This document shows, in pieces, positions 8,791-49,111 of a DNA stretch of 64,000 bases. This DNA comes from a virus. A program made the translations under genes and the position numbers. Location of the stretch: IMG/VR virus record IMGVR_UViG_3300026484_000333, positions 19,932 to 83,931 of that record; one strand, given 5' to 3'. How positions within the stretch are numbered: the first letter of the stretch is position 1; every line of letters starts with the position of its first letter. Below the pieces are notes generated by a model, which was not told where the DNA came from, searched no databases, and saw nothing but the letters and a program-made list of their open reading frames with translations.

Positions 8791-10116
8791 TTATTTGTGT
8801 GCTAGATAAAATGCTTCACCTAAAACAGGATGTTCATATGCTTCAAACTCAAGTTTGTTAGCAAGAACACCATCATCATCTTCAACACTAACACTTGTAT
8901 ATTTGATGTATGGTAACCAAATTGCAAATTTATGTTTTTGTGTTTCATCATCAGTTTCAGTTCTCATTTCAAGGAAAAACTCTGCTGTTTGATTGTTTTT
9001 AAATTTGTTAAGTTCATCCCAATTTTCAAAAGTAACAGTCATTGTTCCTTTGATTGTTTTTTTAGTAATAATTTTTTTCATAATACCAGAAGAAGTAATT
9101 GCTTCTCTGTCAGATACCTGATTTTCAATAGTTATTTCGACATCTTTTCCTTCGTAAGTTTTATTATCAACTGTTAAAATCGCATTTTTACCTACATAAG
9201 GAATTGTTGTTAAATATTGATTTGAAAGTAAAGGCTCATTTTCATTAGTTTCAAAAGAACTTGCTCCTAAATCAATTGACAATGTTGCAATATCAGCAAC
9301 AGGGAAACTAAACTTAACTGAATTAGGAACTGCACCTTTTAGTGTTAGACTTCTACTATCAGTATCATCACAACCATACATTAGTTTAACTGCTAATGAC
9401 TGTTCCTCACCACAAGGTTTAGCAAGTTTGTAAAGGACTGCGTCCCCCTCTTCACCATCTTGAACTTCATAAATTTTATATGCAACGTGTGAAACAACAT
9501 CAATTGTGAATTTATCTCCTACTGCAAAATCAGTTGTACCACTCTCAATTTTAAACTTAATTATTCCATTGTCATAATCTGTACTTGTTGTGGCGTCTTC
9601 TTTTGTACCACTAACACTACCTGTTACACTCCAAACTTCTGCACCAGCAGTGTCAGCATTTGTACATTCAATTGTCCAAGTTTCCGTTACTATAGTGTCC
9701 TCATTGTAACCAAAATTAGTTAAATTACCATCACCTGTATTACCACTATCAGCAGTAATTGTGCTTTCAACTTGTGGAGCTGAATCTGCTCTAATAACTG
9801 CTCCTGTTCCTACTCCAGCCTCTTCTCTTATGCCAAGTGCTACTTCAAGAACAACATTACCTGCAAGGTCATTACTACCGTTTCCAAGTGGTATTAACTC
9901 AAAAGCAAGAGTACCGCTACCAAACTCTTTACCCGGTAATGCAGGGGCTGTAATGTAGGAATTTCTTACAACTTTTCTTTCAATAACATCAATCTCTGGT
10001 TTTAACGCACTATCAGAGGTAACTTCAACTACATCATTGTCTGTAAAATTTCCTCCCTTGTTAAATTCCGCTTCCTTAATAACCGCATATAGCGTAGAAA
10101 GTGTTTTATATGCCAT
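8791..10116 (-). CDS. Major tail tube protein with inserted beta-sandwich domain
   Basis: 441 aa, acidic and beta-rich; tail-tube-like C-terminus (IKGTMTVTF...FAIWLPYIKY...LEFEAY); sits upstream of the chaperones and TMP. Confidence 0.85.
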   Translation of the reverse strand: MAYKTLSTLYAVIKEAEFNKGGNFTDNDVVEVTSDSALKPEIDVIERKVVRNSYITAPALPGKEFGSGTLAFELIPLGNGSNDLAGNVVLEVALGIREEAGVGTGAVIRADSAPQVESTITADSGNTGDGNLTNFGYNEDTIVTETWTIECTNADTAGAEVWSVTGSVSGTKEDATTSTDYDNGIIKFKIESGTTDFAVGDKFTIDVVSHVAYKIYEVQDGEEGDAVLYKLAKPCGEEQSLAVKLMYGCDDTDSRSLTLKGAVPNSVKFSFPVADIATLSIDLGASSFETNENEPLLSNQYLTTIPYVGKNAILTVDNKTYEGKDVEITIENQVSDREAITSSGIMKKIITKKTIKGTMTVTFENWDELNKFKNNQTAEFFLEMRTETDDETQKHKFAIWLPYIKYTSVSVEDDDGVLANKLEFEAYEHPVLGEAFYLAHK

Positions 10117-19149: not shown

Positions 19150-20508
19150 CTAAACTTTTAAGTCGGGACTGCCCCCTAATGGGTCTGTACTTCCCATACT
19201 GCTTGGTTTATTGTTACTTTGGTTTTCAGAATTATTAGTATTATTTTCTGAATTATTTTGGCTCATTGCAACTAAATCTTGAAAGAATTGTGCTTCACTA
19301 CCTGTTAAGAAGGCAGGTACAATATTCTTATCTGCACCTTCAAAATCCATTTCCGGTAAATCAACCAAATCCCTTGCTTCATTTAATGTAGCAAGTCCTG
19401 TTGCAAACAATGTTCTTGCACTGTCAGCTTTTACATCTAAAGCAGTATCAAGTTCAGTAATTCTTCCAAAGTCAAATTCAAAATGATATTTTCCATAACC
19501 AAATTGTTTTCCTAAAAATAAATTAATTTGGTCTTGTATTCTATAAAGATAAGGTCTAACTGCGGTATTAAACACAACTTTCATTAATTCCTGTGGTTTT
19601 CCAGCACTGTTTGCCTCACCGCCTAAAACAAGTGCGTTTAGTTTGAAAACTCTTAAAACTCTTTTTTCACTTATATTCATACTATCTAAAAGCATTGCGT
19701 CTTTAGGACTTGCTTGAACGGTTTTATAATCCATTTTGGCGGGTAAGACTGCTATACCTCTCCTCTCACTACCGCCTTTTCCATATAAAGCGTTAAATTG
19801 TTCTCTCAATTCTTCAATTTGTTGTGGAGTTAAGGCATATTCGGCTTTTAAAATACCAGCTAAAATTACACTGCCCTCATAAAACTCTTGTAGGCTATCA
19901 ATTGCATTTTTTTCCAACTTTAATGTATCAAGCAAAGGTGCTACGCTTGGTAGTCCATAATAAGCATTGTTTAGAGTTGGATTTATAATCCAAATAAGTT
20001 CGTTTTCTTTATAAGCAATCTTATCATTATAAATATAGCCTTTTATAAATTTAGTAGCGTCTGGAACAACTTTAACATTATGAGGTTGAGTTAAAAACCA
20101 AGTTTCATAACTTCCTTTTACATTTTCAAAGGTTAAAGGGGCTACACCTGAAAGCAACAAACCTTGAATTGCAAGTTCAATTGTTGTTCCCCAAGACCAA
20201 AATGGATTAGGTCTATATTCCCATTCTCTTAATTTTTTGTCTTTAACAGGAAGTTTTTTACCTGATTTATCTAATTGATATAAGCGTGGAACTGCTTGTC
20301 CTCCTGCTTTAGCAATATAATCAACTGCACTAAAAACAAGTTCAGTTGTATGGAATGTATTTTCCATAGCACTTGTAGCTAATACACCGTTTCCATCTTT
20401 ATAATCTTCAATGATTTTTTTGTTTGCTTTTGTAGCTTTAGTGTCCATATAAATTAACGTTTCTTTATTTTGTTGAGGCTGTTTTTTAAAAAAATCAAAA
20501 AAACCCAT
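19150..20508 (-). CDS. Portal protein (HK97 family)
   Basis: YYGLPS...AGILK...SPKDAMLL...GLATLNEARDL motifs. Confidence 0.93.
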   Translation of the reverse strand: MGFFDFFKKQPQQNKETLIYMDTKATKANKKIIEDYKDGNGVLATSAMENTFHTTELVFSAVDYIAKAGGQAVPRLYQLDKSGKKLPVKDKKLREWEYRPNPFWSWGTTIELAIQGLLLSGVAPLTFENVKGSYETWFLTQPHNVKVVPDATKFIKGYIYNDKIAYKENELIWIINPTLNNAYYGLPSVAPLLDTLKLEKNAIDSLQEFYEGSVILAGILKAEYALTPQQIEELREQFNALYGKGGSERRGIAVLPAKMDYKTVQASPKDAMLLDSMNISEKRVLRVFKLNALVLGGEANSAGKPQELMKVVFNTAVRPYLYRIQDQINLFLGKQFGYGKYHFEFDFGRITELDTALDVKADSARTLFATGLATLNEARDLVDLPEMDFEGADKNIVPAFLTGSEAQFFQDLVAMSQNNSENNTNNSENQSNNKPSSMGSTDPLGGSPDLKV

Positions 20509-20549
20509 TTGTTTTCCTTTTTAATTTATTATATAACATATATCAGCTT

Positions 20550-20725
20550 AAAGGAAAACAATAAAAACAAAGGAGAGAAAAATGAATAGATTGATTGAAT
20601 TATGAGCTGGAAGCTCAATTGAAGTTTATACAGAAATAAACTTCAATTGAACGCCCATCTCAGGCGTTCTATATTTAACACCCACATCAGGTGTTATAAA
20701 TTGAACGCCCACATCAGGCGTTCTA
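20550..20725 (-). ncRNA. Putative late structured ncRNA: three 27-nt hairpin repeats, two further hairpins and an anti-RBS tail
   Basis: CCGATATAA motif at 20729-20737 with no ORF behind it; hairpins start at 20649, 20676 and 20703 with compensatory base changes; 14-bp inverted repeat CAATTGAAGTTTAT/ATAAACTTCAATTG. Confidence 0.65.
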
Positions 20726-20741
20726 CTGTTATATCGGAAAA

Positions 20742-29403: not shown

Positions 29404-29907
29404 ATGAAAAAACATATAATTGAAAATTTTAAAAAATATAAAGAAACTAACGATATTAGATATTTATTGGAGTGCAAAAAATTAATTTCTGAAGATGGTT
29501 TTATTGTTAAGGTTGAAAATAATGAGGGTTACTGTTCTGGTAGGCTTAAATCATTAAACAATAATAATGCTTTTTATTTTACTCATAGCCAAGAGGAATA
29601 TGTATTAATTCGACTTATAGAAGAATATTTTGAAATTTTTAATCCATTAAAAAATATTGTTTTATTAATCAGAGATAAAGATGCTTTAGAAGAAGCCATA
29701 CAAATTTTTCCTGTTTATTTAAAAGAAGAAGATTTTTCTTATTATATTAATGGGAAGTATCATTTTCCTTTATTAATTTGGGATATAACTTCTAACCATC
29801 TTTATCACCAAGGTTTACCAGATATCTCTTTTGATTGGGATGAATATATCCCTTTAATTAAAAGAGCAATTACTTGGGGAGACTTCAAAAAACAAAATCA
29901 AAGCTGA
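29404..29907 (+). CDS. Hypothetical protein with its own sigma70 promoter (moron)
   Basis: TTGACA-N17-TATAAT at 29344-29372; oriented opposite to the late module. Confidence 0.7.
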   Translation: MKKHIIENFKKYKETNDIRYLLECKKLISEDGFIVKVENNEGYCSGRLKSLNNNNAFYFTHSQEEYVLIRLIEEYFEIFNPLKNIVLLIRDKDALEEAIQIFPVYLKEEDFSYYINGKYHFPLLIWDITSNHLYHQGLPDISFDWDEYIPLIKRAITWGDFKKQNQS

Positions 29908-30269
29908 TTTTGTTTTTTAATTGCTTTTGGTAATTTATATTTAAAGAAATGATATATTTTTACAGCATAATAAAAAAGATAGCTTGTAAATTTTCCAACT
30001 TTTAAATCAAGTAAGCAATTTAGAAAGCATTTGTCCGCTTTATCATAAAGCTCTAAATCACATAAATAATCGTGTAAAATGGCACAAGGCAAATAATCAG
30101 GTCGATATTTTGTATAATTAAACAAATAAGCTATATAAGGCACAGAAGCCCCGTCGCTTACAAAACCTTCAGGAATTATAATATCTTTATATTTAACTTT
30201 CTTTTTAAGTTTTACCTTATTATTTTTAAGTGGTTGAAATATAAAGTCACTGTATTTTAATCTGCCCAA
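29898..30269 (-). CDS. DUF1353-like protein
   Basis: IPEGFVSDGASVP...AILHDYLC...AD..F motif. Confidence 0.85.
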   Translation of the reverse strand: MGRLKYSDFIFQPLKNNKVKLKKKVKYKDIIIPEGFVSDGASVPYIAYLFNYTKYRPDYLPCAILHDYLCDLELYDKADKCFLNCLLDLKVGKFTSYLFYYAVKIYHFFKYKLPKAIKKQNQL

Positions 30270-39832: not shown

Positions 39833-40007
39833 TTTGTACCTTGAAAAATACAAATTTGATGAAATAAGTTCAATTATTTATGATGATAAAAACAAAATCA
39901 TTCAATTTTGGTATAATGGCAGGAAAGTTGTTGGAAAGCTCCAAACAATTTTACAGGATAAAAATGAAATAATAATCGAGAAAGGAAATTATGATGGTTT
40001 GGCTTAA
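39822..40007 (+). CDS. Hypothetical protein
   Basis: ORF track 39780-40007; likely start MKANLY after GGAGG. Confidence 0.55.
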   Translation: MKANLYLEKYKFDEISSIIYDDKNKIIQFWYNGRKVVGKLQTILQDKNEIIIEKGNYDGLA

Positions 40008-40236
40008 AATTGAAAATGTAGGTTTTTTAAAAGTTAGCGATATTAGTTATGTTGGCGAAGTTGATTTAGTTGAAATTGATGATTTGACTAACAAAAATTT
40101 ATATGGATTTGAATTGGTAGTCGGCGGTGAGCTTTTACCTTTGGTTTATGATAGCAGAGAAAAAGCAATTAAGGTAAATGATGCAATTAAAAAGCAACTT
40201 TTGATGAGTGCTAAAATTATAAAATTGGAGGTGTAA
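39991..40236 (+). CDS. Hypothetical protein
   Basis: ORF in operon. Confidence 0.7.
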   Translation: MMVWLKIENVGFLKVSDISYVGEVDLVEIDDLTNKNLYGFELVVGGELLPLVYDSREKAIKVNDAIKKQLLMSAKIIKLEV

Positions 40237-40237
40237 A

Positions 40238-40537
40238 ATGAACGAATGTAGAATTTATAGCTTTATGGATTTGTTTGTAGAAATGGTGGATAATGTTGAA
40301 AATGATGAAATTAAAAGCAAAGGAATCCAAAAAATTTTGCTTGAGGTTACGGGGCAGGTACTTGAAATTGAAGAAGAAATAAGCGAAGGTTGTAAGCAAT
40401 TGAAAATAAATGATAACTTGGTTTATGAAAAAGGAATGTATTTTATTCCTGTTAAAAATGTTGGTGTTGTAGTTGTAAATGAAGAAGATTTGAGTAAAAT
40501 TGCAGAGCTTTTAAATAAGGAGGAAAGCGATGGTTAA
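40238..40537 (+). CDS. Hypothetical acidic protein
   Basis: GGAGG RBS. Confidence 0.7.
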   Translation: MNECRIYSFMDLFVEMVDNVENDEIKSKGIQKILLEVTGQVLEIEEEISEGCKQLKINDNLVYEKGMYFIPVKNVGVVVVNEEDLSKIAELLNKEESDG

Positions 40538-40889
40538 GTTTATAAAGCGATACGTTTGCCAAGGCAAAGTTCAAAATGATTATGAAAACAAAGTTGATTT
40601 TTTTCAGGTGATTGTTGAAAAGGAAAACGGCGGTTTGGAATGGAATGATATTGTTGTTAAAGGTTTCTTGGTTTTTCTAAAGGGCGGTAGATATGACCGC
40701 TTGATTCGCGGGATGTATAAAATAAAAGAAGAAAAATGGAAAGAACTTGAAAGCAAGTTGTTTGACAAAGTTGAAGCCATTGATTGCGAGAAAGAAACCG
40801 AACTTGAAGTTTATGAACTTGCTTTGGCTGGTGTTAGTTTGCCAGAAGTGCAAAAATTTTTAGAAGAAAATGCGGAGAAGGTCAAATGA
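40530..40889 (+). CDS. Hypothetical protein
   Basis: GGAGG RBS; overlaps the upstream gene. Confidence 0.7.
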   Translation: MVKFIKRYVCQGKVQNDYENKVDFFQVIVEKENGGLEWNDIVVKGFLVFLKGGRYDRLIRGMYKIKEEKWKELESKLFDKVEAIDCEKETELEVYELALAGVSLPEVQKFLEENAEKVK

Positions 40890-41203
40890 AACTTTTGCTC
40901 CGCTTGTTGATAGCTGGTTTGATGGTTTCGCAGTTGTTTGGCTGGGAATTGCTGTGCTTGGTCGGAAAGGAAAATGACAAATGGTTGAATGTTGAAAAGC
41001 AGGTAAGTTTACGTTGTAGTAGTGGGAAATTGAAAGCAAGTGCGGTTGGGGTTAGGAAAGTTGGCGATATGTTTGTTTATAAAATGCCAAATGGCGAGGC
41101 GTTGTATTGCGAAGAAGATTGGGTGTGGAGTTTTAGAAAGCTTGTTGTAGTAGGCGGGAAAAATTTTAAAAGCAGAAGTTGTAAGGTTTACTATAAAAGG
41201 TAA
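40886..41203 (+). CDS. Secreted Cys-containing protein
   Basis: N-terminal signal peptide (MKLLLRLLIAGLMVSQLFG); 4 Cys. Confidence 0.65.
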   Translation: MKLLLRLLIAGLMVSQLFGWELLCLVGKENDKWLNVEKQVSLRCSSGKLKASAVGVRKVGDMFVYKMPNGEALYCEEDWVWSFRKLVVVGGKNFKSRSCKVYYKR

Positions 41204-41372
41204 GGCAGTTGGTTGCCTGTTGGTTTGGTTTTTGCAGGTTTAGGGTCAGGTACTTTTTAGTAAATAGCTAAAATCTTGTTAGTTATATGCCAAGCTATTT
41301 GTGAGTAATTGTTAGGTGTTTTAGAGTCAGCAACTTTTTGAGTGCTTTTCGCTCAACCAACCTCCCCCGTTG

Positions 41373-41478
41373 TTATTCACAACTACCTGTGAATAACTTG
41401 TTTTGGTGTCAAACACTTATTTTTTACTTAACATAATGCATATTCTCGGGAAAATTTAAATGGGAAAAATGTGAATAA
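41373..41478. promoter_or_regulatory. Cluster of DnaA-box-like 9-mers (TTATTCACA)
   Basis: TTATTCACA at 41373-41381; TGTGAATAA at 41388-41396 and 41470-41478; non-coding region. Confidence 0.65.
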
Positions 41479-41693
41479 CTCGGCGAATAGTTGTTCAGTT
41501 TTAAGTGAATATTAAGGATTCTTTACAAAACAGTGAAAATTTAGTGCCAGACACCATAAAGGATTTTTAACGCTAGGTAGTTTATAGAATAAGCGTCTGA
41601 CACTATTTTATCGGGATTTGGAGGAAGTTATTTATCTGGCTATAAAAAAAGGGCGAAAAATGGTGCGTTTTATGGGTCACATTGTAGACTTAA

Positions 41694-41815
41694 AATTTTT
41701 TAGTAATTATTTTATAATCACTTGGCAATTTTTTAGTAATTATTTTATAATCACTTGGCAATTTTTTAGTAATTATTTTGTAATTACTTGGCAATCATTT
41801 TTATAATCATTTGGC
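41694..41815. repeat. AT-rich 33-bp tandem repeat (3 copies plus a degenerate partial)
   Basis: AATTTTTTAGTAATTATTTTATAATCACTTGGC at 41694, 41727 and 41760 (two mismatches in the third). Confidence 0.95.
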
Positions 41816-41908
41816 GGTTATCTGTTATTCATTTTATAATTATCTACCTGTTATTTATTTATAAAATAGTGCCAGACACTTATTTTTATTTAATAGCAAA
41901 AAGGATAA

Positions 41909-42247
41909 TTATCCTTTTTGCTCCTCGAAAATCTTACTCCATAATTCTTCTTCTGTTTCCACTGTTTCTATATTTCCTTTCTTTATTTCTTGCTCTATTG
42001 CTTTTCTTCTTCCATCTTTAAAAAAACAAAAATCTTCCAAAAAAATTCTCAAATACTTGGACGTTGTAATGGAAAAATTATAAGCATCTTTTAAGAGATA
42101 AATTTTTCTTTTCTTTGTTATAACTCCATTTTTTTCTTCTTTAATATAAGTCTTCCCTGCAATAAGTGTATTATAACTCTGAAAAATAACTCCAAAATCA
42201 TTACCAATTAAAAACTGATTTTTTTGAATCTGTCTTACTTTTAGCAT
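41909..42247 (-). CDS. Early hypothetical protein
   Basis: GGAGGTACATA-ATG gives MLKVRQIQKNQF...FQSYNTLIA...SITTSKYLRIFL; start revised from the track's 42298. Confidence 0.8.
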   Translation of the reverse strand: MLKVRQIQKNQFLIGNDFGVIFQSYNTLIAGKTYIKEEKNGVITKKRKIYLLKDAYNFSITTSKYLRIFLEDFCFFKDGRRKAIEQEIKKGNIETVETEEELWSKIFEEQKG

Positions 42248-42260
42248 TATGTACCTCCTC

Positions 42261-42818
42261 TTAATGTTTTTTAATCCACAAACTGAATCCAGTTTCAAAG
42301 GGATGAATATAATTAATTTTAAATAAAAAATCGTCTTTTATATTTTTAGTAATTTCCCCAGGGATATCTTGTTTATCATAATAACCGTTGGCATAATCTC
42401 CTATTTTTTCCCATCCGACGTTATTTAGCCATTCCTCTGGTACCCACTCAGGTACCGCTATATTTACCTGATTTACAAATAAATCTAAAAAATCGGAGAT
42501 TAATTCCTTATTTTTATTTAATTTTTCAAAATAATAAAAATCTCCCTTATTATTAATAAAAATTTCATCAATATGTTTAATTATGGGTAATTCCTCACCA
42601 CTTTCACACTTAACAGAAAAATCGAAGTCGATTATATGATTATCACTATAAGCATAATTATAAACTTCATTTTTTTCTAAAATTTCACTTAATTCGTAAT
42701 TTTCTTCATAATTAATCAGAAAAAACACTTCACCATCTAAACAACCTATATCAATGTCGCCATTTTCAAGTGCTTTTTTTATTTTTTCATTTTTTAAAAT
42801 TTTTTCAAGTTCTTTCAT
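42261..42818 (-). CDS. Early acidic hypothetical protein
   Basis: GGAGGTACACA-ATG. Confidence 0.8.
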   Translation of the reverse strand: MKELEKILKNEKIKKALENGDIDIGCLDGEVFFLINYEENYELSEILEKNEVYNYAYSDNHIIDFDFSVKCESGEELPIIKHIDEIFINNKGDFYYFEKLNKNKELISDFLDLFVNQVNIAVPEWVPEEWLNNVGWEKIGDYANGYYDKQDIPGEITKNIKDDFLFKINYIHPFETGFSLWIKKH

Positions 42819-42829
42819 TGTGTACCTCC

Positions 42830-43246
42830 TTAATTTATTCTATAAATATAATGAGTTTTGCCATTAATAGTAATTTCTCTCTCATCACCATCGTACGAAG
42901 CAATAACGTTTCCTGCCCCGTCGTTTCTCAAAACATCATCTACCCACTGCTCCACATCTACATAACAACGTAAATTTTCAGGTATGTTCGGCTCATAGCA
43001 TTCTTCATAAATATTGTATAATTCATTTTTTGCATATTCTTCTACATCATCGTAATCATCAAAAATTAAAAATTCATAACAATCACAATCAGCAAAAATG
43101 TAATTATCTTCTTTTTTGAATTCACAATCCTTTATATCCTGAGGAAATACCTCAAGTGTTTCCGATAAAACTTTTAAATCGTGTTTATTTTTAATATTAA
43201 AATAATTTAACACTTCTTTAAAAGTTAATTCACTGTCGTATAGCAT
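42830..43246 (-). CDS. Early acidic protein, C-terminus reminiscent of ArdA-like antirestriction proteins
   Basis: Very acidic; IPENLRCYVDVEQW..D motif; GGAGGTACAAA-ATG. Confidence 0.5.
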   Translation of the reverse strand: MLYDSELTFKEVLNYFNIKNKHDLKVLSETLEVFPQDIKDCEFKKEDNYIFADCDCYEFLIFDDYDDVEEYAKNELYNIYEECYEPNIPENLRCYVDVEQWVDDVLRNDGAGNVIASYDGDEREITINGKTHYIYRIN

Positions 43247-43260
43247 TTTGTACCTCCTTT

Positions 43261-43601
43261 TTAAATTTCATAAAAAATACAAATTTTTTGTTTGTTAAAT
43301 CTGTTAATTTTTTCTTTAAATCTTTTTAAAAAAGTTACCATATCTTCAAAAATTTCAAAATCTAAATTATAAAATTTTGTATTATATTTATACTTTAAAT
43401 AAGTTTCTATATCGTCCCTTAATCCAGTTAAAAAGACATTATTAAGGGTATATTCAACGTTGTTTATAATAATACCCTCTTTATTCGTTTTGAAATTGTT
43501 TTCTTCTTCATAAACGGAAAAAAACTCTTTTTCCGTTATTTCTTTTTCGTTTAATTTTACTTCAATTACTTTTTTTCAAAAACTTTTGTTTCTATTAACA
43601 T
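43261..43601 (-). CDS. ~113-aa gene interrupted at an A_AAA_AAG slippery site (needs a -1 frameshift)
   Basis: GGAGGTGCAAA-ATG TTA ATA GAA ACA AAA GTT TTT GAA AAA AAG TAA; the -1 frame is open from ~43569 to TAA at 43261. Confidence 0.65.
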
Positions 43602-43613
43602 TTTGCACCTCCT

Positions 43614-44519
43614 TTAATCTTCTAAATCTTCTATAATAGCATCAAAAAAAACATCTTCATCAAATTCTAATAAAATTTTGATGAAATTGTCAAATTTATC
43701 ATAATTTACAATTAAATGATAAATAAATTCGTCTTCAGCCCAATTGAATAAATTTTCAAATAGTTCTTTTTTTGTTTGTTTTTTATTGCAATTTTCACAA
43801 TCTTTATAATAATCTTCATAAATTTCAATTAATTCCTCTTTTTTTATTTTTTTAAGAAGTACATCAATCAATTTGTCTTCCCTGTATTTAATCATATCTG
43901 TTATAATCCAGCTTAAAGTCTCATAATCTAAATTGTCGTAATATTTAATTTCCTTTAAATATTCCCTTATGTCGTCTATCAATTCATAATAATTCCTACC
44001 ATCGTGGTGAATTATTATTACCTCAATTTTTTTGTATTTTTCACAATCAAAAACTTCCACCTCAATATCGCCATCAGCCGCTTTATCTAAAAAATCTTCA
44101 AAAGTGCCAATATATTGCATATCATAACTGAATCTTCCCCGCCAAGTCCCGGCACTACCTTCCACAAGCCATAAATTCCCATTATTAATTTCTTCTTTTA
44201 GTTCATCTAAAAAGCATTTCCAATCTTCCCTTGCAAAGTCTCCAGCCGTCCCCCAATCCCAATTCTCATAATCTTCTATAATTTCCTCTTTTTTGTTTTT
44301 TAATTCTTCCAATTTTTCTTTTAACTCTTTTATCTCTCTTTTAATCTTATTGTATGTAATGCTCCCTGTTATTATGTCTTTTAACATTTCATTTTTTTCT
44401 TTTATTTCATCCTTAAGTGTTTCAACCCCTTCATTAAAATTTTGTTCAGCTAAATATTTAGCATTATTTTCTACTACTTCAACCCAGTTAAATTCCATAA
44501 CTTTTTTACATTCTTTCAT
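43614..44519 (-). CDS. Early acidic hypothetical protein
   Basis: GGAGGTACAAAA-ATG; GTWRG and HHDGRNYY motifs. Confidence 0.8.
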   Translation of the reverse strand: MKECKKVMEFNWVEVVENNAKYLAEQNFNEGVETLKDEIKEKNEMLKDIITGSITYNKIKREIKELKEKLEELKNKKEEIIEDYENWDWGTAGDFAREDWKCFLDELKEEINNGNLWLVEGSAGTWRGRFSYDMQYIGTFEDFLDKAADGDIEVEVFDCEKYKKIEVIIIHHDGRNYYELIDDIREYLKEIKYYDNLDYETLSWIITDMIKYREDKLIDVLLKKIKKEELIEIYEDYYKDCENCNKKQTKKELFENLFNWAEDEFIYHLIVNYDKFDNFIKILLEFDEDVFFDAIIEDLED

Positions 44520-44538
44520 TTTTGTACCTCCTTTTTAA

Positions 44539-44823
44539 TTATAAAGATAGGTAGAAGTATTTTAATTCTCCCTCGTCTATTCTGTAACTTACTTTTGCTT
44601 TTTTTAAGAGTTCTTTATTAAGACCTCTTAAAGCACTTTCTAACTTTATATAAGTCTCATAATTACTTGTTCCCCCCTCATTAAATACTCCATATAAGTA
44701 TTCGTTTAATCCCTCTTTTGCATTTTCTCCCCAAAACCAACCACACAAACCGACGGGTATTTTACCCCAATCGGGGAAAATTTTTTTGAATTTTTTTAGC
44801 CTTACTGTTTTTTCCAATTTCAT
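44539..44823 (-). CDS. Early hypothetical protein
   Basis: GGAGGCATAA-ATG. Confidence 0.75.
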   Translation of the reverse strand: MKLEKTVRLKKFKKIFPDWGKIPVGLCGWFWGENAKEGLNEYLYGVFNEGGTSNYETYIKLESALRGLNKELLKKAKVSYRIDEGELKYFYLSL

Positions 44824-44842
44824 TTATGCCTCCTTTTTAAAA

Positions 44843-45184
44843 TTATTCAATTTCTAAAATAATTTTTTCTTCTCTTTTTAATTCTTTCATTTTTTCCCTA
44901 ACCTCTTCAATTAAATCAAAAAGATTTTCCTTAAAACTTTCAAAAGGACGATTTATAATATCGTCTGTTTCATTATTGTTATAATATGTTGTGTAATTGC
45001 TTAAAAACAATTTAACACTTTCTTTATTAAGAGAAATATAATAATCTTCATCACCATCATTTATTATTTTAAAACCTTTTTCCTCCACATATTTATCTAT
45101 AATATGTGTAAAGAATTTCATCTCTTCATTGTTGTTCATTACCCTTTCTACTCTACCCGCTCTTAATGTTACTTCTAGTTTCAT
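44843..45184 (-). CDS. First gene of the early operon, hypothetical
   Basis: GGAGGTACAA-ATG directly behind a sigma70 promoter. Confidence 0.8.
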   Translation of the reverse strand: MKLEVTLRAGRVERVMNNNEEMKFFTHIIDKYVEEKGFKIINDGDEDYYISLNKESVKLFLSNYTTYYNNNETDDIINRPFESFKENLFDLIEEVREKMKELKREEKIILEIE

Positions 45185-45221
45185 TTGTACCTCCTTGTTT
45201 TTTATTGTTTTCTTAACACGT

Positions 45222-45250
45222 ATTATAAAGGATTTTTAACAAAATGTCAA
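45222..45250 (-). promoter_or_regulatory. Consensus sigma70 promoter of the early operon
   Basis: TTGACA-N17-TATAAT on the minus strand. Confidence 0.9.
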
Positions 45251-45519
45251 GGATTTTTTATAAAAATTTTCAAAAATTTTTTAATTTTTATTCTTGTATA
45301 TACATTATATATAATAAAAAATTTTTTTTATTGTTTTAATTTTTTAGCTCAATATTATAAGAAATAAGTGTCCAGCACTAAAAATTTTCTTATATTTTAC
45401 TTTATAAAAAATTTAAAAATTTTTCAAAATTTTCCTATATTATACTATTACCGCTTTTTCAGCAAATTTGGCAAGTTTAATTTCTATTACTATTACCACT
45501 TTTTTAGTAGCTTTCAGAA

Positions 45520-45617
45520 AGTTTAAAAGGGAGGCACAAAGGCAAAAGCCTGAAATCTCGGAGGCACAAATGAAATTCTATAAGTAAGGAGGCACAATTT
45601 CCTTTTTGGCTTTTGCC
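45520..45617 (-). ncRNA. Putative sRNA with three anti-Shine-Dalgarno motifs (UUGUGCCUCC)
   Basis: Own consensus promoter at 45624-45652 with no RBS-led ORF behind it; 10-bp closing stem GGCAAAAGCC/GGCUUUUGCC; motifs at 45530-45539, 45560-45569 and 45588-45597. Confidence 0.75.
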
Positions 45618-45623
45618 ATTCAA

Positions 45624-45652
45624 ATTATAAAAAATTTTTAACTATTTGTCAA
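45624..45652 (-). promoter_or_regulatory. Consensus sigma70 promoter of the putative sRNA
   Basis: TTGACA (45652-45647)-N17-TATAAT (45629-45624). Confidence 0.88.
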
Positions 45653-45693
45653 GAGATTTTTTACATTTTTGTAAAAAATTTTTATAAAAAACA

Positions 45694-45996
45694 TTATTTT
45701 GGCTGTTTTTCTTTTTTCTTATTAAAACGTTCTACAATATGACCCATTCTACGCTTAATTATAACACTGATGACTGCTCCTAATGTTCCACCCAAAATAA
45801 ACATACAAATAACAAAATAATCTTTGGCAATTATTCCTTCACTAATTCCCAAACCCATACTTGTAATCCAAAGCACTTGAATTATAAAAGCAAATATACC
45901 TGTTTTAAAAACCGACTTTTCAACCACAACATATACACTGTATGTTCTCATAATTTGAAACAAAAAATTAAAAAAGAAAACTAAAAAGGCAGTCAT
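45694..45996 (-). CDS. Small multi-TM membrane protein (DUF2179/DUF5698-like)
   Basis: Three TM segments; LGGTLG motif. Confidence 0.6.
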   Translation of the reverse strand: MTAFLVFFFNFLFQIMRTYSVYVVVEKSVFKTGIFAFIIQVLWITSMGLGISEGIIAKDYFVICMFILGGTLGAVISVIIKRRMGHIVERFNKKKEKQPK

Positions 45997-47357
45997 TTTT
46001 CTATCTTTGTAATTACAAGTTCTTTTAAATAATCTGCCCTGTCTTTGTCAATTCTAAACTCTTTAAATCTCGGAAAATCCATAACTAATTGTTTTTCTTT
46101 ATTTGTATTTGTTATATAATATAAATCAGTATAATAAATTTCTACAAGTTTTCCTATTAGTTTGTCTCCATCAAGCTCTCTAATTTCATCAGTTAATCCA
46201 CTTCCTACTTTAATTTTAAATTTTTCATCTTCTGTTTGACAAATAAATCCGCCTATTTTGCCTTTATATTTTCCTTCGCCTTCAAACCAATTTACAATTT
46301 TTAAAGTGCAACTCTCAAGCCCTTTGTATTTAATCCATTTTTTACTTCTTTTTTTCTCATAAATTCCATTCAAATCTTTAAGCATAATTCCCTCACCATT
46401 TTTATCTTTGACTTCATCAAAAAAGTTTTTAACCTGTATTAAATTGTCACAGACAAATTGCTCAACCAATCTGATAAAATTTCTGTTGTTTAAAATTTTA
46501 ACCCCCCTTAAATTTTGACCCCCCTTATTTTCAAAATCTAAACCCCCCAAGATTTTTAAGAGCCTAACCCTCCTGTCTTTTAAAGTTGGACAATAGGATT
46601 TGAGGTTGTTCCACTCTCTAATTGTAAGATAATCAAAACAATAAAAATTAAGTTCTTGTTTTTCTTGCTCTGTTGCAGTTTCTTTTATAACTTTATTAAC
46701 AAGCCCAGATGTTTCCTGCCTTGTGTTTGCAAGTAGCTCTCCATCATAATAGCCGTCAGGTTTATTTTTTAATTCATCAAAAATATGCGGTAGATTTAAA
46801 ACACTGCCATTGTAAGTAACTGCATTTATTTCATTTTCATTTTTATAAATAAGACATCTTACACCGTCTAATTTTTCTTCTACTGCAACAGGAAATTTAA
46901 TCTCATTAATGTCGATTTTATTTATATCATAAGCCTTCATAATTGTTGTATCAGGTATAAACTCATAACCGAGTGCTTCATTTATTAGTTTGACTTTAAC
47001 TCCGATTTTTAACTTTTTAGTTAAAACGTCTTGATAATATTTACCTTCTAACCCACATTTAGATAAAAAACTAATTACCTTTTGTTCAGCCTCATTGTTT
47101 CTTGCTTTAAGATTTGCAAGATAACCAACAAGCTCGATAAATTTATTGGGTGGGATTATTAGCCCCCCATAATTAAATTGCATTTCCGGTAATTTTTTAA
47201 TATGTGTATTTAAGAAAGGATTTATAAGAATTTTTAACAAATCAAGAAAATATGGAACATCTTTATACTCCTGAATTATTTTTATTTTTTCTTTTTTAGA
47301 AGTTGTTAAAATTAATTTATCAAAACCTGAAATCCATTTAAAATTATCTTTTTTCAT
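45993..47357 (-). CDS. ATP-dependent DNA ligase
   Basis: EEKLDGVR, YDGEL, FYCFD, EGIMLK, WIKYK, VGSG and FPRF motifs. Confidence 0.96.
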   Translation of the reverse strand: MKKDNFKWISGFDKLILTTSKKEKIKIIQEYKDVPYFLDLLKILINPFLNTHIKKLPEMQFNYGGLIIPPNKFIELVGYLANLKARNNEAEQKVISFLSKCGLEGKYYQDVLTKKLKIGVKVKLINEALGYEFIPDTTIMKAYDINKIDINEIKFPVAVEEKLDGVRCLIYKNENEINAVTYNGSVLNLPHIFDELKNKPDGYYDGELLANTRQETSGLVNKVIKETATEQEKQELNFYCFDYLTIREWNNLKSYCPTLKDRRVRLLKILGGLDFENKGGQNLRGVKILNNRNFIRLVEQFVCDNLIQVKNFFDEVKDKNGEGIMLKDLNGIYEKKRSKKWIKYKGLESCTLKIVNWFEGEGKYKGKIGGFICQTEDEKFKIKVGSGLTDEIRELDGDKLIGKLVEIYYTDLYYITNTNKEKQLVMDFPRFKEFRIDKDRADYLKELVITKIEK

Positions 47358-47579
47358 CTAATTCTCCTTTTCATTGTCTTTGTAAGTTGTTTCTTTCCAA
47401 CGCCACAAGCTTGTAATTAAATCGTATTCCCCAAAATCCTTATCTACAACAATTAAATTCTGGGTAATTATTTCTATCTGATAACCTTGACTAACCCATT
47501 GTCTGATTTTCTTTTGGGTATTAACCACCGTCTCAACCATACAAATAAATTCTTTTTTCATTTTTAATTCTCCTTGCAA
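47358..47579 (-). CDS. Hypothetical protein
   Basis: ORF in operon. Confidence 0.6.
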   Translation of the reverse strand: MQGELKMKKEFICMVETVVNTQKKIRQWVSQGYQIEIITQNLIVVDKDFGEYDLITSLWRWKETTYKDNEKEN

Positions 47580-47836
47580 TAATCTTTTAAAAAGTCCAAA
47601 AGTTCATATAACCCTATTTCATTAACAAACTCTTCCCAGCTTAACTCAAACTCTCCCAATTCCCTGCAATCTTCATCATAATGCCCCCTGAATTCAATAG
47701 GACGACATTCTCCATAACTTACTACTATATAACCTCCTTTTGAAGAAATAAATTCCTCAAAAGTTTCCTCAAAATAATCATCAAAAATTTTATTATAAGC
47801 CTCATCATAGTCTTTAGCATTAATCCACATTTTCAC
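47564..47836 (-). CDS. Hypothetical acidic protein
   Basis: ORF in operon. Confidence 0.65.
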   Translation of the reverse strand: MKMWINAKDYDEAYNKIFDDYFEETFEEFISSKGGYIVVSYGECRPIEFRGHYDEDCRELGEFELSWEEFVNEIGLYELLDFLKDYCKEN

Positions 47837-48158
47837 TGCTCCTTATTTCAAGATAATCTTCAAATTTTTTGAATTTTTTATACAACTCTTTTTCAATATA
47901 TTCTTGATGTAACTTTTTAATGTTTTTCAAAATAAATTTAACAAAATTGTAAAATTTATCTGCTTTATCCTCTTTTTCCCAATTATACAAATAGACACTA
48001 AAATTGCCTCTATTAAGATAAAAAAATGTAACTACAATTGTAGGATTCTTTTTACTATCCCAGCTTATATTAACCCATATCTCTCCAATTAAATCTGCCT
48101 TCATAATTTGTTTATTTATTTTATTTACTAATTTAATCATTTTTTCTCTACTAATCAT
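47820..48158 (-). CDS. Hypothetical protein
   Basis: ORF in operon. Confidence 0.65.
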   Translation of the reverse strand: MISREKMIKLVNKINKQIMKADLIGEIWVNISWDSKKNPTIVVTFFYLNRGNFSVYLYNWEKEDKADKFYNFVKFILKNIKKLHQEYIEKELYKKFKKFEDYLEIRSSENVD

Positions 48159-49038: not shown

Positions 49039-49111
49039 TTTTTTTTCTCCTTTGTTTTTATTTGTATTCAAATTATAAAAAATTTTTTATAAAATGTCAA
49101 GAAAAAATAAA

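Follow-up and report, generated by a model that had tools for sequence, protein, structure and literature searches.

The LhrC1-5 small RNAs of Listeria monocytogenes carry three redundant C/U-rich sites, lying in loops or along a single-stranded segment, each of which can bind the G-rich Shine-Dalgarno (SD) region of a target mRNA and block initiation, according to the part of the published account used here (PMC4132741). The candidate phage RNA described below resembles them in its predicted fold, with copy 2 of a repeated anti-SD motif in a loop, copy 3 single-stranded and copy 1 half-exposed, and it has a consensus promoter of its own, as expected of such an sRNA. It differs from them in being encoded by a phage, in having a 10-nt motif made of CCUCC and a specific extension, and in having no terminator hairpin that we could find. 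Its motif fits a private spacer common to one adjacent operon, whereas the targets of LhrC are scattered host mRNAs. LhrC is one of the UCCC-motif sRNAs of low-GC Gram-positive bacteria, which also include RsaE, RNAIII and FsrA.

The c4 antisense RNA of phages P1 and P7 (immI operon) is encoded upstream of its target, in matching orientation and in the same operon region, and acts at a site ahead of the downstream genes icd and ant, with expression being blocked, as set out in the sections of the source on which we draw (PMC8198154). The candidate RNA (45617-45520) similarly lies upstream of its operon (45194-41909), both on the minus strand. The two differ in that c4 serves the lysogenic immunity of a temperate phage, whereas the locus described here has three motif copies and seven start sites; no sign of lysogeny functions was seen in the parts of the phage genome examined. 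c4 acts at one target region. Citron and Schuster reportedly showed in 1990 that the loop/target specificities of P1 and P7 c4 differ by matching changes, and these resemble a paired copy 1/RBS change found in a relative of our phage. The C4 family is presumably listed in Rfam. A search of the window (the whole 64-kb stretch of DNA that was analysed) gave no Rfam match at the gathering score, and at E values up to 10 the region 45150-45750 gave six chance-level matches, none of them c4-like, with no relationship to LhrC or Cuckoo.

The Cuckoo/CcsR RNAs of Alphaproteobacteria bear an anti-SD-like CCUCCUCCC, one per loop, in two to four adjacent hairpins, in the portion of their description cited here (PMC4615179). 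Repeated anti-SD-like motifs are common to these RNAs and ours; as far as that description goes, they differ in motif, host range and architecture, the phage RNA having one enclosing helix and not a row of hairpins. The RegA protein of phage T4 is a class-wide translational repressor of early mRNAs, acting via their start regions. Class-wide shut-off of early mRNAs is also what we propose here, but with an RNA in place of a protein as the effector. As multi-site anti-SD sRNAs (LhrC) and an upstream antisense RNA (P1 c4) are already known, the initial annotation of the locus as a candidate new system was an overstatement.

Results

A consensus promoter facing a stretch without open reading frames

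The locus belongs to an uncultured hydrothermal-vent phage with a genome of 83,931 bp (83.9 kb). A crude gene caller gave 108 ORFs in this genome, and 109 start sites were taken for the pairing and energy tests. The genes around the locus, from 41909 to 64000, are all on the minus strand. A consensus promoter had been annotated at 45652-45624 (minus), pointing into a stretch without an RBS-led ORF. This promoter, P1 (45624-45652), is a 12/12 sigma-70-type match, TTGACA-N17-TATAAT; the genome has 12 such perfect matches in all. An SD-like AAGGA or GGAG follows within 30 nt downstream of eight of the 12, but P1 lacks one and faces an ORF-free stretch. The TATAATTTGAAT of P1 recurs at the promoter at 49100, which precedes an SD-led gene. 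The operon has a promoter of its own, P2 (45222-45250, minus), also a 12/12 match to TTGACA-N17-TATAAT and present in all three phages compared. P1 and P2 seem to be of the same strength and equally early, which makes the regulatory logic less obvious.

The predicted non-coding RNA extends from 45617 to 45520 (minus). Its 5′ end near 45617 was placed from the −10 box, and 45520, where homology to an RNA-less relative starts in a three-way alignment, was used as the module boundary. No RNA run was found to contain the stretch. Perfect pairing had been proposed between the 5′ end at 45617 and 45550-45541, and the MFE fold contains this pairing as a 10-bp closing helix, with GGCAAAAGCC (45608-45617) as 5′ arm and GGCTTTTGCC / GGCUUUUGCC (45541-45550) as 3′ arm; after the helix comes only UUUGUG. 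The folds have weak z-scores (−1.29 in the window phage, −1.46 in the relative L011), and the closing helix is the only element shared by the single-sequence folds of the two. No conserved ORF was found in the RNA stretch; the minus-strand frames diverge after the indels in L011, and a reading of both sequences showed that the SD-like AAGGA of the window RNA stretch is lost there.

A search of the minus strand from 45617 to 45185 found no intrinsic terminator. The RNA may therefore be a free trans-acting sRNA or a long cis leader, as the missing terminator would permit read-through. An AT-rich spacer (45251-45519, minus) separates the RNA module from P2. It contains two units of ~47 nt that end with GGTAATAG, as well as a GTG-N5-CAC element and TAATGTATATACAA, and its conservation extends to all three phages, the RNA-less one among them.

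Three anti-SD copies

The sequence TTGTGCCTCC occurs only three times in the genome, against about 0.02 expected from base composition, and all three occurrences are in the ORF-free stretch, at 45597-45588, 45569-45560 and 45539-45530 (minus). The pentamers CCTCC and GGAGG occur 81 times each. In the RNA each copy consists of the anti-SD core CCUCC and a 5-nt extension, and by our own count the copies are spaced by 28 and 30 bp, spacings that differ in L011. Copy 1 (45588-45597, UUGUGCCUCC), which covers AAGGAGGUACAA together with the next UU, is half paired in the window MFE fold and reads UUGUGUCUCC in L011. Copy 2 with its 5′ extension (45560-45577, AAUUUCAUUUGUGCCUCC) occupies the 12-nt hairpin loop of GAAUUUC/GAGAUUU, and copy 3 (45530-45539) lies in a single-stranded stretch beyond the helix and is engaged in two of the three MFE dimers listed. 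In the L011 fold, copies 1 and 3 are unpaired. The triple motif with its middle copy in this loop, as first described, was thus recovered and proved to be genome-unique.

Operon genes and their ribosome sites

The operon (41909-45194, minus) has seven start sites, all of the form GGAGG-Y-R-Y-A. Five read GGAGGTACA, which occurs five times in the genome, always in the operon (0.17 expected), and the remaining two are GGAGGCATA and GGAGGTGCA. A related RBS at all seven genes had been noted correctly, but with positions that belong to the start codons; each 9-mer starts at the first RBS position given below. Gene 1 (113 aa, 44843-45194) has GGAGGTACA at 45194-45186 and its start at 45184, and ranks first of 109 start sites in predicted binding energy. 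Gene 2 (94 aa, 44539-44833) has GGAGGCATA at 44833-44825, start 44823 and rank 2. Gene 3, an orphan of 301 aa (43614-44531; GGAGGTACA at 44531-44523, start 44519, rank 8), has the L011 protein as the sole homologue found. Gene 4 (43261-43612; GGAGGTGCA at 43612-43604, ATG at 43601, rank 3) is broken or frameshifted: a stop follows after 11 codons and reading continues only after a −1 shift. Seven start sites are therefore present as claimed, but the intact seventh gene assigned to 43601 is not. Gene 5 (138 aa, 42830-43257; GGAGGTACA at 43257-43249, start 43246, rank 4) is ArdA-like; it scores 19.7 bits against Pfam ArdA, under the 27-bit cut-off, and all three of its homologues match ArdA (best E 1.1e-5). 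This protein is the only functional hint on the operon's role, which the initial annotation had supposed to be host takeover. Gene 6 (185 aa, 42261-42829; GGAGGTACA at 42829-42821, start 42818, rank 7) and gene 7 (112 aa, phrog_21575, 41909-42258; GGAGGTACA at 42258-42250, start 42247, rank 6) complete the operon. An SD match of at least 7 nt was found in 11 of 108 ORFs, six of which are operon genes; for most other genes the AAGGA/AAGGAG described earlier holds by the crude gene caller (108 ORFs).

Specificity of pairing

Contiguous, ungapped pairing of at least 9 nt with the 10-mer was found at eight of the 109 start sites, namely the seven operon sites and the gene at 40238 (plus strand); at the other 101 the longest run was at most 8 nt. 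The 10-nt pairing first proposed for the operon sites is present at five, and is 9 nt each at 42247 and 42818. When all 1024 possible 5-mers ahead of CCUCC were compared, UUGUG paired completely with the most operon sites (five of seven), UUGUA being next with four. The GUG of the extension can pair with any pyrimidine-purine-pyrimidine, by Watson-Crick or G-U pairs, and so would read the GGAGG-YRY-A(A) sites of every operon gene. The longer pairing claimed for copy 2 at the start of gene 1 is also present (16 nt with GGAGGUACAAAUGAAA, one G-U), and at gene 2 it extends to 18 nt (GGAGGCAUAAAUGAAAUU, one G-U).

In cofold calculations of binding energy, unfolding costs included, the operon sites ranked 1, 2, 3, 4, 6, 7 and 8 of 109 (Mann-Whitney p = 6e-6), rank 5 being one non-operon gene of the window. 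With copy 1 alone, duplex energies ranged from −19.0 to −19.6 at six operon sites, and the best site after these reached −17.0. A non-operon gene came second of 36 in the cofold of L164, and the window RNA gave −16.8 and −15.3 kcal/mol with two RBSs of L165 that are outside the class. Energy scores by themselves are thus not very specific. Complementarity specific to the operon is supported in silico.

Conservation and loss in relatives

The comparison covered three genomes, the window phage, L011/G003 and L165/G001, so that every comparative item is a single event. L011/G003 (ligase 87% and 301-aa protein 73% identical to those of the window phage) retains P1, as TTGACA-N18-TATAAT, together with the helix, the three motifs, the spacer, P2, the RBS class and an operon of three genes. 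The RBSs of this operon are GGAGGCACAAAUGAAA, GGAGGUGUAA and AAGGAGACACA. Copy 2 is identical in L011 and forms a perfect 16-nt complement with the first of these, and this first start site is joined to another gene, that for the 301-aa protein. The 5′ arm of the L011 helix is GGCAAAAAGC, with one added A that has its counterpart in one added U of the 3′ arm; A-run and U-run each lengthen from 4 to 5, and the 10 bp are retained. Copy 1 has a C to U change in L011, and the third operon gene has GGAGA in place of GGAGG, giving an 11-nt perfect duplex with one paired change. This 'compensatory' change is permissive and not forced, since the U in copy 1 can also pair with G. By our own count the three 10-mers differ between the two phages at 1 of 30 positions and the rest of the RNA at 11 of 68 (Fisher p = 0.10). 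With the intergenic region ~87% identical overall, the conservation of the motifs does not significantly exceed that of the sequence around them.

In L165/G001 (ligase 82% identical, direct terminal repeats present), P1 and the motifs are absent, and homology to the other two phages starts right past copy 3. The operon behind its P2 has the RBSs GGAGCGAAA, twice, GGAGGAAUA, at the ArdA-like homologue, and GGAGAAAAA. Five scattered GGAGGYRYA were found in G001, none of them RBS-like (four judged by sequence, the fifth by coordinates that place it within the ligase gene). The joint absence of the module and, as far as seen, the RBS class from G001 is a single event. A search for a relative with the RBS class but no RNA found none, an outcome in favour of the initial annotation: in G001, the sole RNA-less relative, no RBS of the class was seen. 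The operons of the three phages contain 7, 3 and 4 genes.

Discussion

We consider it somewhat probable, judging from sequence, that the locus encodes an anti-SD RNA, either free or a long leader, which is aimed at the start sites of the adjacent operon and likely blocks their translation. Host RNA polymerase would most likely transcribe 45617 to ~45520 (minus) from P1 into a non-coding RNA that contains the 10-bp closing helix and the three UUGUGCCUCC copies. The target would be the GGAGGUACAA start site, with GUG lying against YRY. Pairing would mask the SD, and at the first two genes also the AUG; binding of the 30S subunit would then most likely be blocked, limiting or ending translation of the operon. 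The RNA might work on its own as a free sRNA, or form a long leader on transcripts that read through from P1 into the operon. We infer transcription, the RNA ends, pairing in vivo, repression as opposed to another effect, and timing. The initial annotation proposed an sRNA that recognizes an RBS barcode; operon-specific complementarity and conservation in one relative with paired changes argue for this reading, while its trans-acting part is not separable from a cis leader.

It is rather unlikely that the copies are DNA repeats without RNA function, the RBS and spacer forming a junction for cassette swaps and the inverted copies being recombination remnants or sites for a DNA-binding protein. 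Operon content does vary (7, 3 and 4 genes), the fusion of the first L011 start site to the 301-aa gene would be expected from recombination at such a junction, and the ~87% conservation holds even across the intergenic region. Cassette exchange between direct repeats does not yield inverted copies, however, and the copies stand exactly behind a perfect promoter, in a helix that is still paired after a double indel. Nor do spacings of 28 and 30 bp, different in L011, suggest phased protein sites, and gain or loss affects the module and the RBS class jointly. An improbable reading, offered earlier as an alternative, is a general anti-SD sponge or 16S 3′-end mimic whose three CCUCC mask GGAGG sites, mainly on host mRNAs, leading to host shut-off in a phage that mostly uses the weaker AAGGA(G). 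CCUCC is the universal anti-SD core, GGAGG is missing from most phage genes outside the operon, and copy 1 reads CCUCCUUA. Compared with what we take to be the 16S 3′ terminal sequence, the match beyond CCUCC is nevertheless not conserved: CCUCCUUA becomes UCUCCUUA in L011, where the 16S-like core is broken, and copies 2 and 3 continue with GA and CU/UA. The mimic is weakened by this change, and it leaves unexplained why UUGUG is the best of 1024 extensions for the operon sites.

That the plus strand is the functional one seems decidedly improbable. Its three GGAGGCACAA RBS look-alikes would be a decoy for ribosomes or a regulator protein (CsrB-type titration), or would serve a mini-peptide, MKFYK. 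GGAGGCACAAATGAAATTCTATAAGTAA is indeed a perfect SD-AUG-stop unit with a 5-codon ORF, MKFYK, which a reading of both sequences shows is kept in L011 as MKCYK. Yet the peptide changes F to C there, a start codon follows only one of the three copies, the neighbours from 41909 to 64000 are all on the minus strand, and the best plus-strand promoter nearby matches at most 9/12, a level reached by chance (39 found vs 35.7 expected). Most improbable of all is coincidence, an AT-rich intergenic repeat being complementary by chance to an operon with strong SDs. GGAGG and CCTCC are common, at 81 each, and the energy scores are of limited specificity; against this, the 9- and 10-mers are both unique, the seed ranked first and L011 repeats the pattern with paired changes.

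On the preferred reading, an anti-SD RNA would act on an operon that is an early-type unit with its own consensus promoter, P2. The genome has a second candidate anti-start-site RNA at 20490-20740 (minus), which is conserved in G003 with compensatory stem changes; G001 has neither this RNA nor the start sites that it would target. The candidates at 45617 and at 20490-20740 would represent one design seen twice in the genome.

Results

Organization of the locus

The window is part of a virus record that consists of one contig of 83,931 bp with direct terminal repeats, and the genome has a G+C content of ~28%. In a search of sequencing runs, one hydrothermal-vent metagenome, from which this DNA may derive, was the sole run containing the whole stretch, four runs of one 2025 study shared 8–15% of its words, and no RNA run contained it. 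The locus is on the minus strand. An ATP-dependent DNA ligase gene (45993–47357; PF01068 and phrog_114) and a hydrophobic ORF of 100 aa (45694–45996) precede P1, a perfect TTGACA-N17-TATAAT promoter (45652–45624), which is followed by ~100 nt without a usable ORF. An AT-rich spacer of ~270 nt (45251–45519) then leads to P2, a second perfect promoter (45250–45222), and to an operon of six intact genes and one broken gene (45184–41909). Twelve perfect promoter matches occur in the genome, P1 and P2 among them; eight of the 12 have an SD-like sequence within 30 nt downstream, and P1 lacks one. No late-type CYGATATA motif was found within 40000–48000, and the window has no tRNA genes.

The stretch behind P1 carries three minus-strand copies of the anti-Shine-Dalgarno 10-mer TTGTGCCTCC, with starts at 45597, 45569 and 45539 (copies 1–3). 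These are the only copies in the genome, where ~0.02 would be expected from base composition. The predicted 5′ end of a P1 transcript, GGCAAAAGCC, forms a 10-bp helix with GGCUUUUGCC around copies 1 and 2. In the predicted fold, a 7-bp hairpin holds copy 2 in its 12-nt loop, and copy 3 is unpaired, 3′ of the closing helix; as a whole the fold is little better than that of shuffled sequences (z = −1.29). The promoter suggests that this candidate RNA (~45617–45520) is transcribed. There is no intrinsic terminator between it and P2, only UUUGUG after the helix, so the candidate may be a free sRNA, a processed fragment or a read-through leader from P1 that places anti-SD sequences in cis. In an Rfam search, nothing in the window reached the gathering score, and 45150–45750 gave only chance-level matches at E values up to 10.

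Pairing of the motif with the operon ribosome sites

The operon start sites share the ribosome-site class GGAGG-YRY-A. All five genomic copies of GGAGGTACA are operon ribosome sites, and the remaining two operon sites are GGAGGCATA and GGAGGTGCA. Among 108 ORFs called with a crude gene caller, most use AAGGA or AAGGAG; an SD match of at least 7 nt occurs in 11, six of which are operon genes. The coordinates listed as ribosome sites in the initial annotation turned out to be those of start codons and not of the motifs.

Contiguous pairing of the 10-mer (ungapped, Watson–Crick and G-U) was scored against 109 start regions. Pairing over at least 9 nt was obtained at eight, namely the seven operon sites and a plus-strand gene at 40238, and the other 101 paired over 8 nt or fewer. 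The 10-nt pairing claimed initially for the operon class does not extend to 42247 and 42818, which pair over 9 nt. When all 1024 5-mers were placed before CCUCC and ranked by the operon sites paired over the full 10 nt, UUGUG came first (5/7), followed by UUGUA (4/7). UUGUG ranks first because G, U and G each take two partners, so that GUG reads UAC, CAU, UGC, CAC and UGU alike. Together with its extension, copy 2 pairs over 16 nt with the SD and AUG of gene 1 and over 18 nt with those of gene 2, with one G-U in each case.

Duplex energies for copy 1 alone were −19.0 to −19.6 kcal/mol at six operon sites, the next gene scoring −17.0. With cofold binding energies, which include the cost of unfolding both RNAs, the operon sites ranked 1, 2, 3, 4, 6, 7 and 8 of 109 (p = 6e-6), rank 5 being an unrelated gene (29898–30269). 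The specificity in energy is limited, as the window RNA scores −16.8 and −15.3 with two sites outside the class in L165, a relative that lacks the RNA module.

Outside the operon, one gene alone showed 10-nt pairing with the motif (40227–40537, plus strand; site GGAGGTGTAAAATG, three G-U pairs). It belongs to a converging plus-strand operon and could be either an additional target or a match by chance.

Relatives with and without the RNA module

Only two relatives were found. A blastn search of GenBank phages in distant mode with 41900–46000 gave no match. The double 10-mer pattern matched 42 stretches in viral contigs, of which one was a true relative (L011) and 41 were rejected as coding repeats or unrelated. 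In metagenome contigs the same pattern matched at least 118 stretches; those of low G+C were screened, and none of 12 inspected resembled the locus. An 18-mer around copy 2 matched L011 and one unrelated contig among viral contigs, and a conserved pattern from the P2 region recovered only the two known relatives. The 301-aa operon protein alone led to no relatives, and the gene 1 protein to one weak partial match. A ligase search of genome contigs gave at best 36% identity, to 'MAG: Desulfurellales bacterium', and was set aside as too distant to name a host.

The relative that carries the RNA module (L011/L164, record G003; 78.9 kb, direct terminal repeats) has a ligase 87% identical and a 301-aa operon protein 73% identical to those of the window. 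Its layout is unchanged: P1 (with an 18-nt spacer), helix, three motifs, spacer, P2 and an operon, here of three genes. The first operon site, GGAGGCACAAAUGAAA, precedes the 301-aa gene and is a perfect 16-nt complement of copy 2; the other two are GGAGGUGUAA and AAGGAGACACA. Over 17 kb of L011 with 36 called genes, pairing of at least 9 nt with its own motifs was found only at these three sites, which rank 1, 3 and 4 by binding energy. Two paired changes are seen. In the helix, the A-run and the U-run have both grown from 4 to 5, so that 10 bp are kept. Copy 1 is UUGUGUCUCC and the third operon gene has an unusual GGAGA in place of GGAGG, giving a perfect 11-nt duplex. The whole intergenic region is ~87% identical between the two phages, and differences fall at 1 of 30 positions in the 10-mers vs 11 of 68 in the rest of the RNA (p = 0.10), which is only suggestive of better conservation of the motifs.

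A coding reading of the minus-strand RNA was discarded. A 39-aa ORF begins before the predicted transcription start, and L011 has lost its start codon; an internal UUG frame is altered after the indels.

The second relative (L165, record G001; 80.6 kb, direct terminal repeats, ligase 82% identical) has neither P1 nor the triple motif; a single TGTGCCTCC lies elsewhere in the record. Its homology to the other two phages starts directly 3′ of copy 3 and runs through the spacer and P2, which indicates that the RNA module is a separable insert or deletion. Four genes lie behind P2 in L165. Two have GGAGCGAAA, the homologue of the 138-aa protein of the window (53% identical) has the ribosome site GGAGGAAUA, and one gene has GGAGAAAAA; none of the four sites is of the YRY class. 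The record contains five scattered copies of GGAGGYRYA, four apparently inside coding sequence and the fifth, by coordinates, within the ligase gene. A relative that keeps the ribosome-site class without the RNA was sought and, in the sole candidate, L165, both module and class are missing, in agreement with the link drawn in the initial annotation. The more distant relative L166 (ligase 44% identical) shows no such gap.

Operon content and flanking elements

The operon proteins are nearly orphans in Pfam, PHROG and protein searches, and the only match of the 301-aa protein in a set of 5.8 billion proteins was its L011 homologue. The 138-aa acidic protein (42830–43246, minus) scored 19.7 bits against Pfam ArdA (anti-restriction), for which the cut-off is 27; all three homologues of this protein match ArdA, with a best E value of 1.1e-5. 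A search of PDB sequences with an alignment of the ArdA-like proteins returned no match with E below 0.07. Host-type consensus promoters and an ArdA-like gene would fit an early anti-defence unit.

The seventh gene of the initial annotation, gene 4, does have a start and a ribosome site but is not intact. From its start at 43601 (minus) it runs for 11 codons, ending GAA AAA AAG TAA, and the −1 frame then continues for ~100 codons, to ~43261. The heptamer A_AAA_AAG at 43575–43569 matches the dnaX-type −1 slippery site. The break could reflect programmed frameshifting, homopolymer phase variation or an assembly error; the L011 operon has no counterpart of gene 4. At the end of the last operon gene, a perfect hairpin, GCAAAAAGGATAA/TTATCCTTTTTGC (41896–41921, minus), overlaps the stop codon, with TATTAAAT after it, as noted by eye. 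It is likely to be the operon terminator, and was missing from the terminator scan because the scan demands a T-run.

Directly upstream of the P1 −35 box is an AT-rich palindrome, TTTTTTACA-AAAA-TGTAAAAAA (45655–45676, minus), whose arms are kept in L011 around a TTTT centre; it could serve as a weak terminator for the ligase operon or as a protein site. The spacer (45251–45519, minus) contains two tandem units of ~47 nt, ending in (C)GGTAATAGTA, and a block, TAATGTATATACAA. Units and block are kept in all three phages, including L165 (counterpart at 9760–9900), and may be sites for a regulator or a replication protein. The genome has three copies of GTGTCTGGCAC/GTGTTTGACAC (GTG-N5-CAC), all in the 700-bp gap that follows the operon (41416, 41554 and 41879, minus). 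The spacer before P2 contains a less exact copy, AGTGCTGGACACT (~45383), with counterparts GGTGTTTGGCA in L011 and GGTGTTTAGCAC in L165.

A second candidate RNA

Another element was seen at 20490–20740 (minus), consisting of a late-type motif, CCGATATAA, three hairpins of the GAACGCC...GGGCGTTC type, a longer hairpin and then CAUUUUUCUCUCCUUUGUUUUUAUUG. This tail is the reverse complement of the leader, SD and AUG common to several early lead genes (the AAAGGAGAGAAAAATG class). An exact 13-mer antisense scan was too noisy to be of use, except at the site near 20560. The element is kept in record G003 (G003:C1:19250-19650, L243) with compensatory changes in its stems. The last base of the 17-nt tail pattern is G in the window genome and A in G003, and the partner of that base is present at three of four matching start sites in the window genome (partner of G) and at four of four in G003 (partner of A). 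Record G001 has neither the tail nor the AAAGGAGAGAAAAATG start-site class. The same design is seen twice in one phage group.

Discussion

The feature is real and beyond chance, in an analysis that is wholly computational and covers three genomes. We consider that the RNA is probably an anti-SD regulator tied to the neighbouring operon. On the simplest reading, the three heads of a P1 transcript would pair with the start sites of the operon mRNA and so keep 30S subunits off them, with repression as the expected outcome by analogy with other anti-SD RNAs. As P1 and P2 look similar, capping or ending expression would be a more likely effect of the RNA than preventing it.

Other explanations were considered. 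If the RNA were a general anti-SD sponge or a mimic of 16S RNA, the extension of the motif would be left unexplained, and copy 1 carries UCUCC in L011; this reading is weakened. Repeats acting at the DNA level as junctions would account for the variable gene content of the operon and, in L011, for a first start site that is fused to a different gene, but not for inverted copies behind a promoter and in a helix whose pairing is kept. The motifs could also be read on the plus strand, as SD look-alikes with a 5-codon ORF, and such an ORF is indeed present in both phages (MKFYK in the window, MKCYK in L011); however, no promoter above chance level was found on that strand.

We know of few phage-encoded base-pairing RNAs with a known role, and a limited full-text literature search gave no paper title describing a phage RNA of this kind. 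A 2024 preprint on lambda describes post-transcriptional regulation in the interplay of phage and host as little explored (10.1101/2024.10.31.621285). LhrC of Listeria is reported to bind a target's SD region with each of three redundant UCCC sites, two of them in loops and one in a single-stranded stretch (PMC4132741). The c4 RNA of phage P1 is described as part of the same operon as icd and ant, blocking both at a site ahead of them (PMC8198154), and Cuckoo RNAs as having CCUCCUCCC in each of two to four hairpin loops (PMC4615179). The candidate RNA would work similarly to these three and has no sequence relationship with them. Beyond them, it has a private extension of the ribosome site that is common to the operon and would be read by a wobble-tolerant seed.

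A broader, doubtful possibility is that this phage group times early gene classes by translation as well, each class having an SD-to-AUG barcode and a dedicated RNA reader, with RNA and barcode gained, lost and mutated together. One RNA would act early, its three wobble-tolerant UUGUGCCUCC heads directed to the GGAGG-YRY-A anti-defence operon. The other, structured and behind a late-type promoter, would use its anti-start-site tail on the AAAGGAGAGAAAAAUG early lead genes. If the candidate RNA is an anti-SD regulator as proposed above, a lytic-type phage would mark a whole, probably anti-defence, operon with a private extension of its ribosome sites, and one RNA with a G-U-tolerant seed that accepts all variants of the mark would control it. 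This would be a compact translational switch for one gene class, and its design would be usable for orthogonal control of translation.
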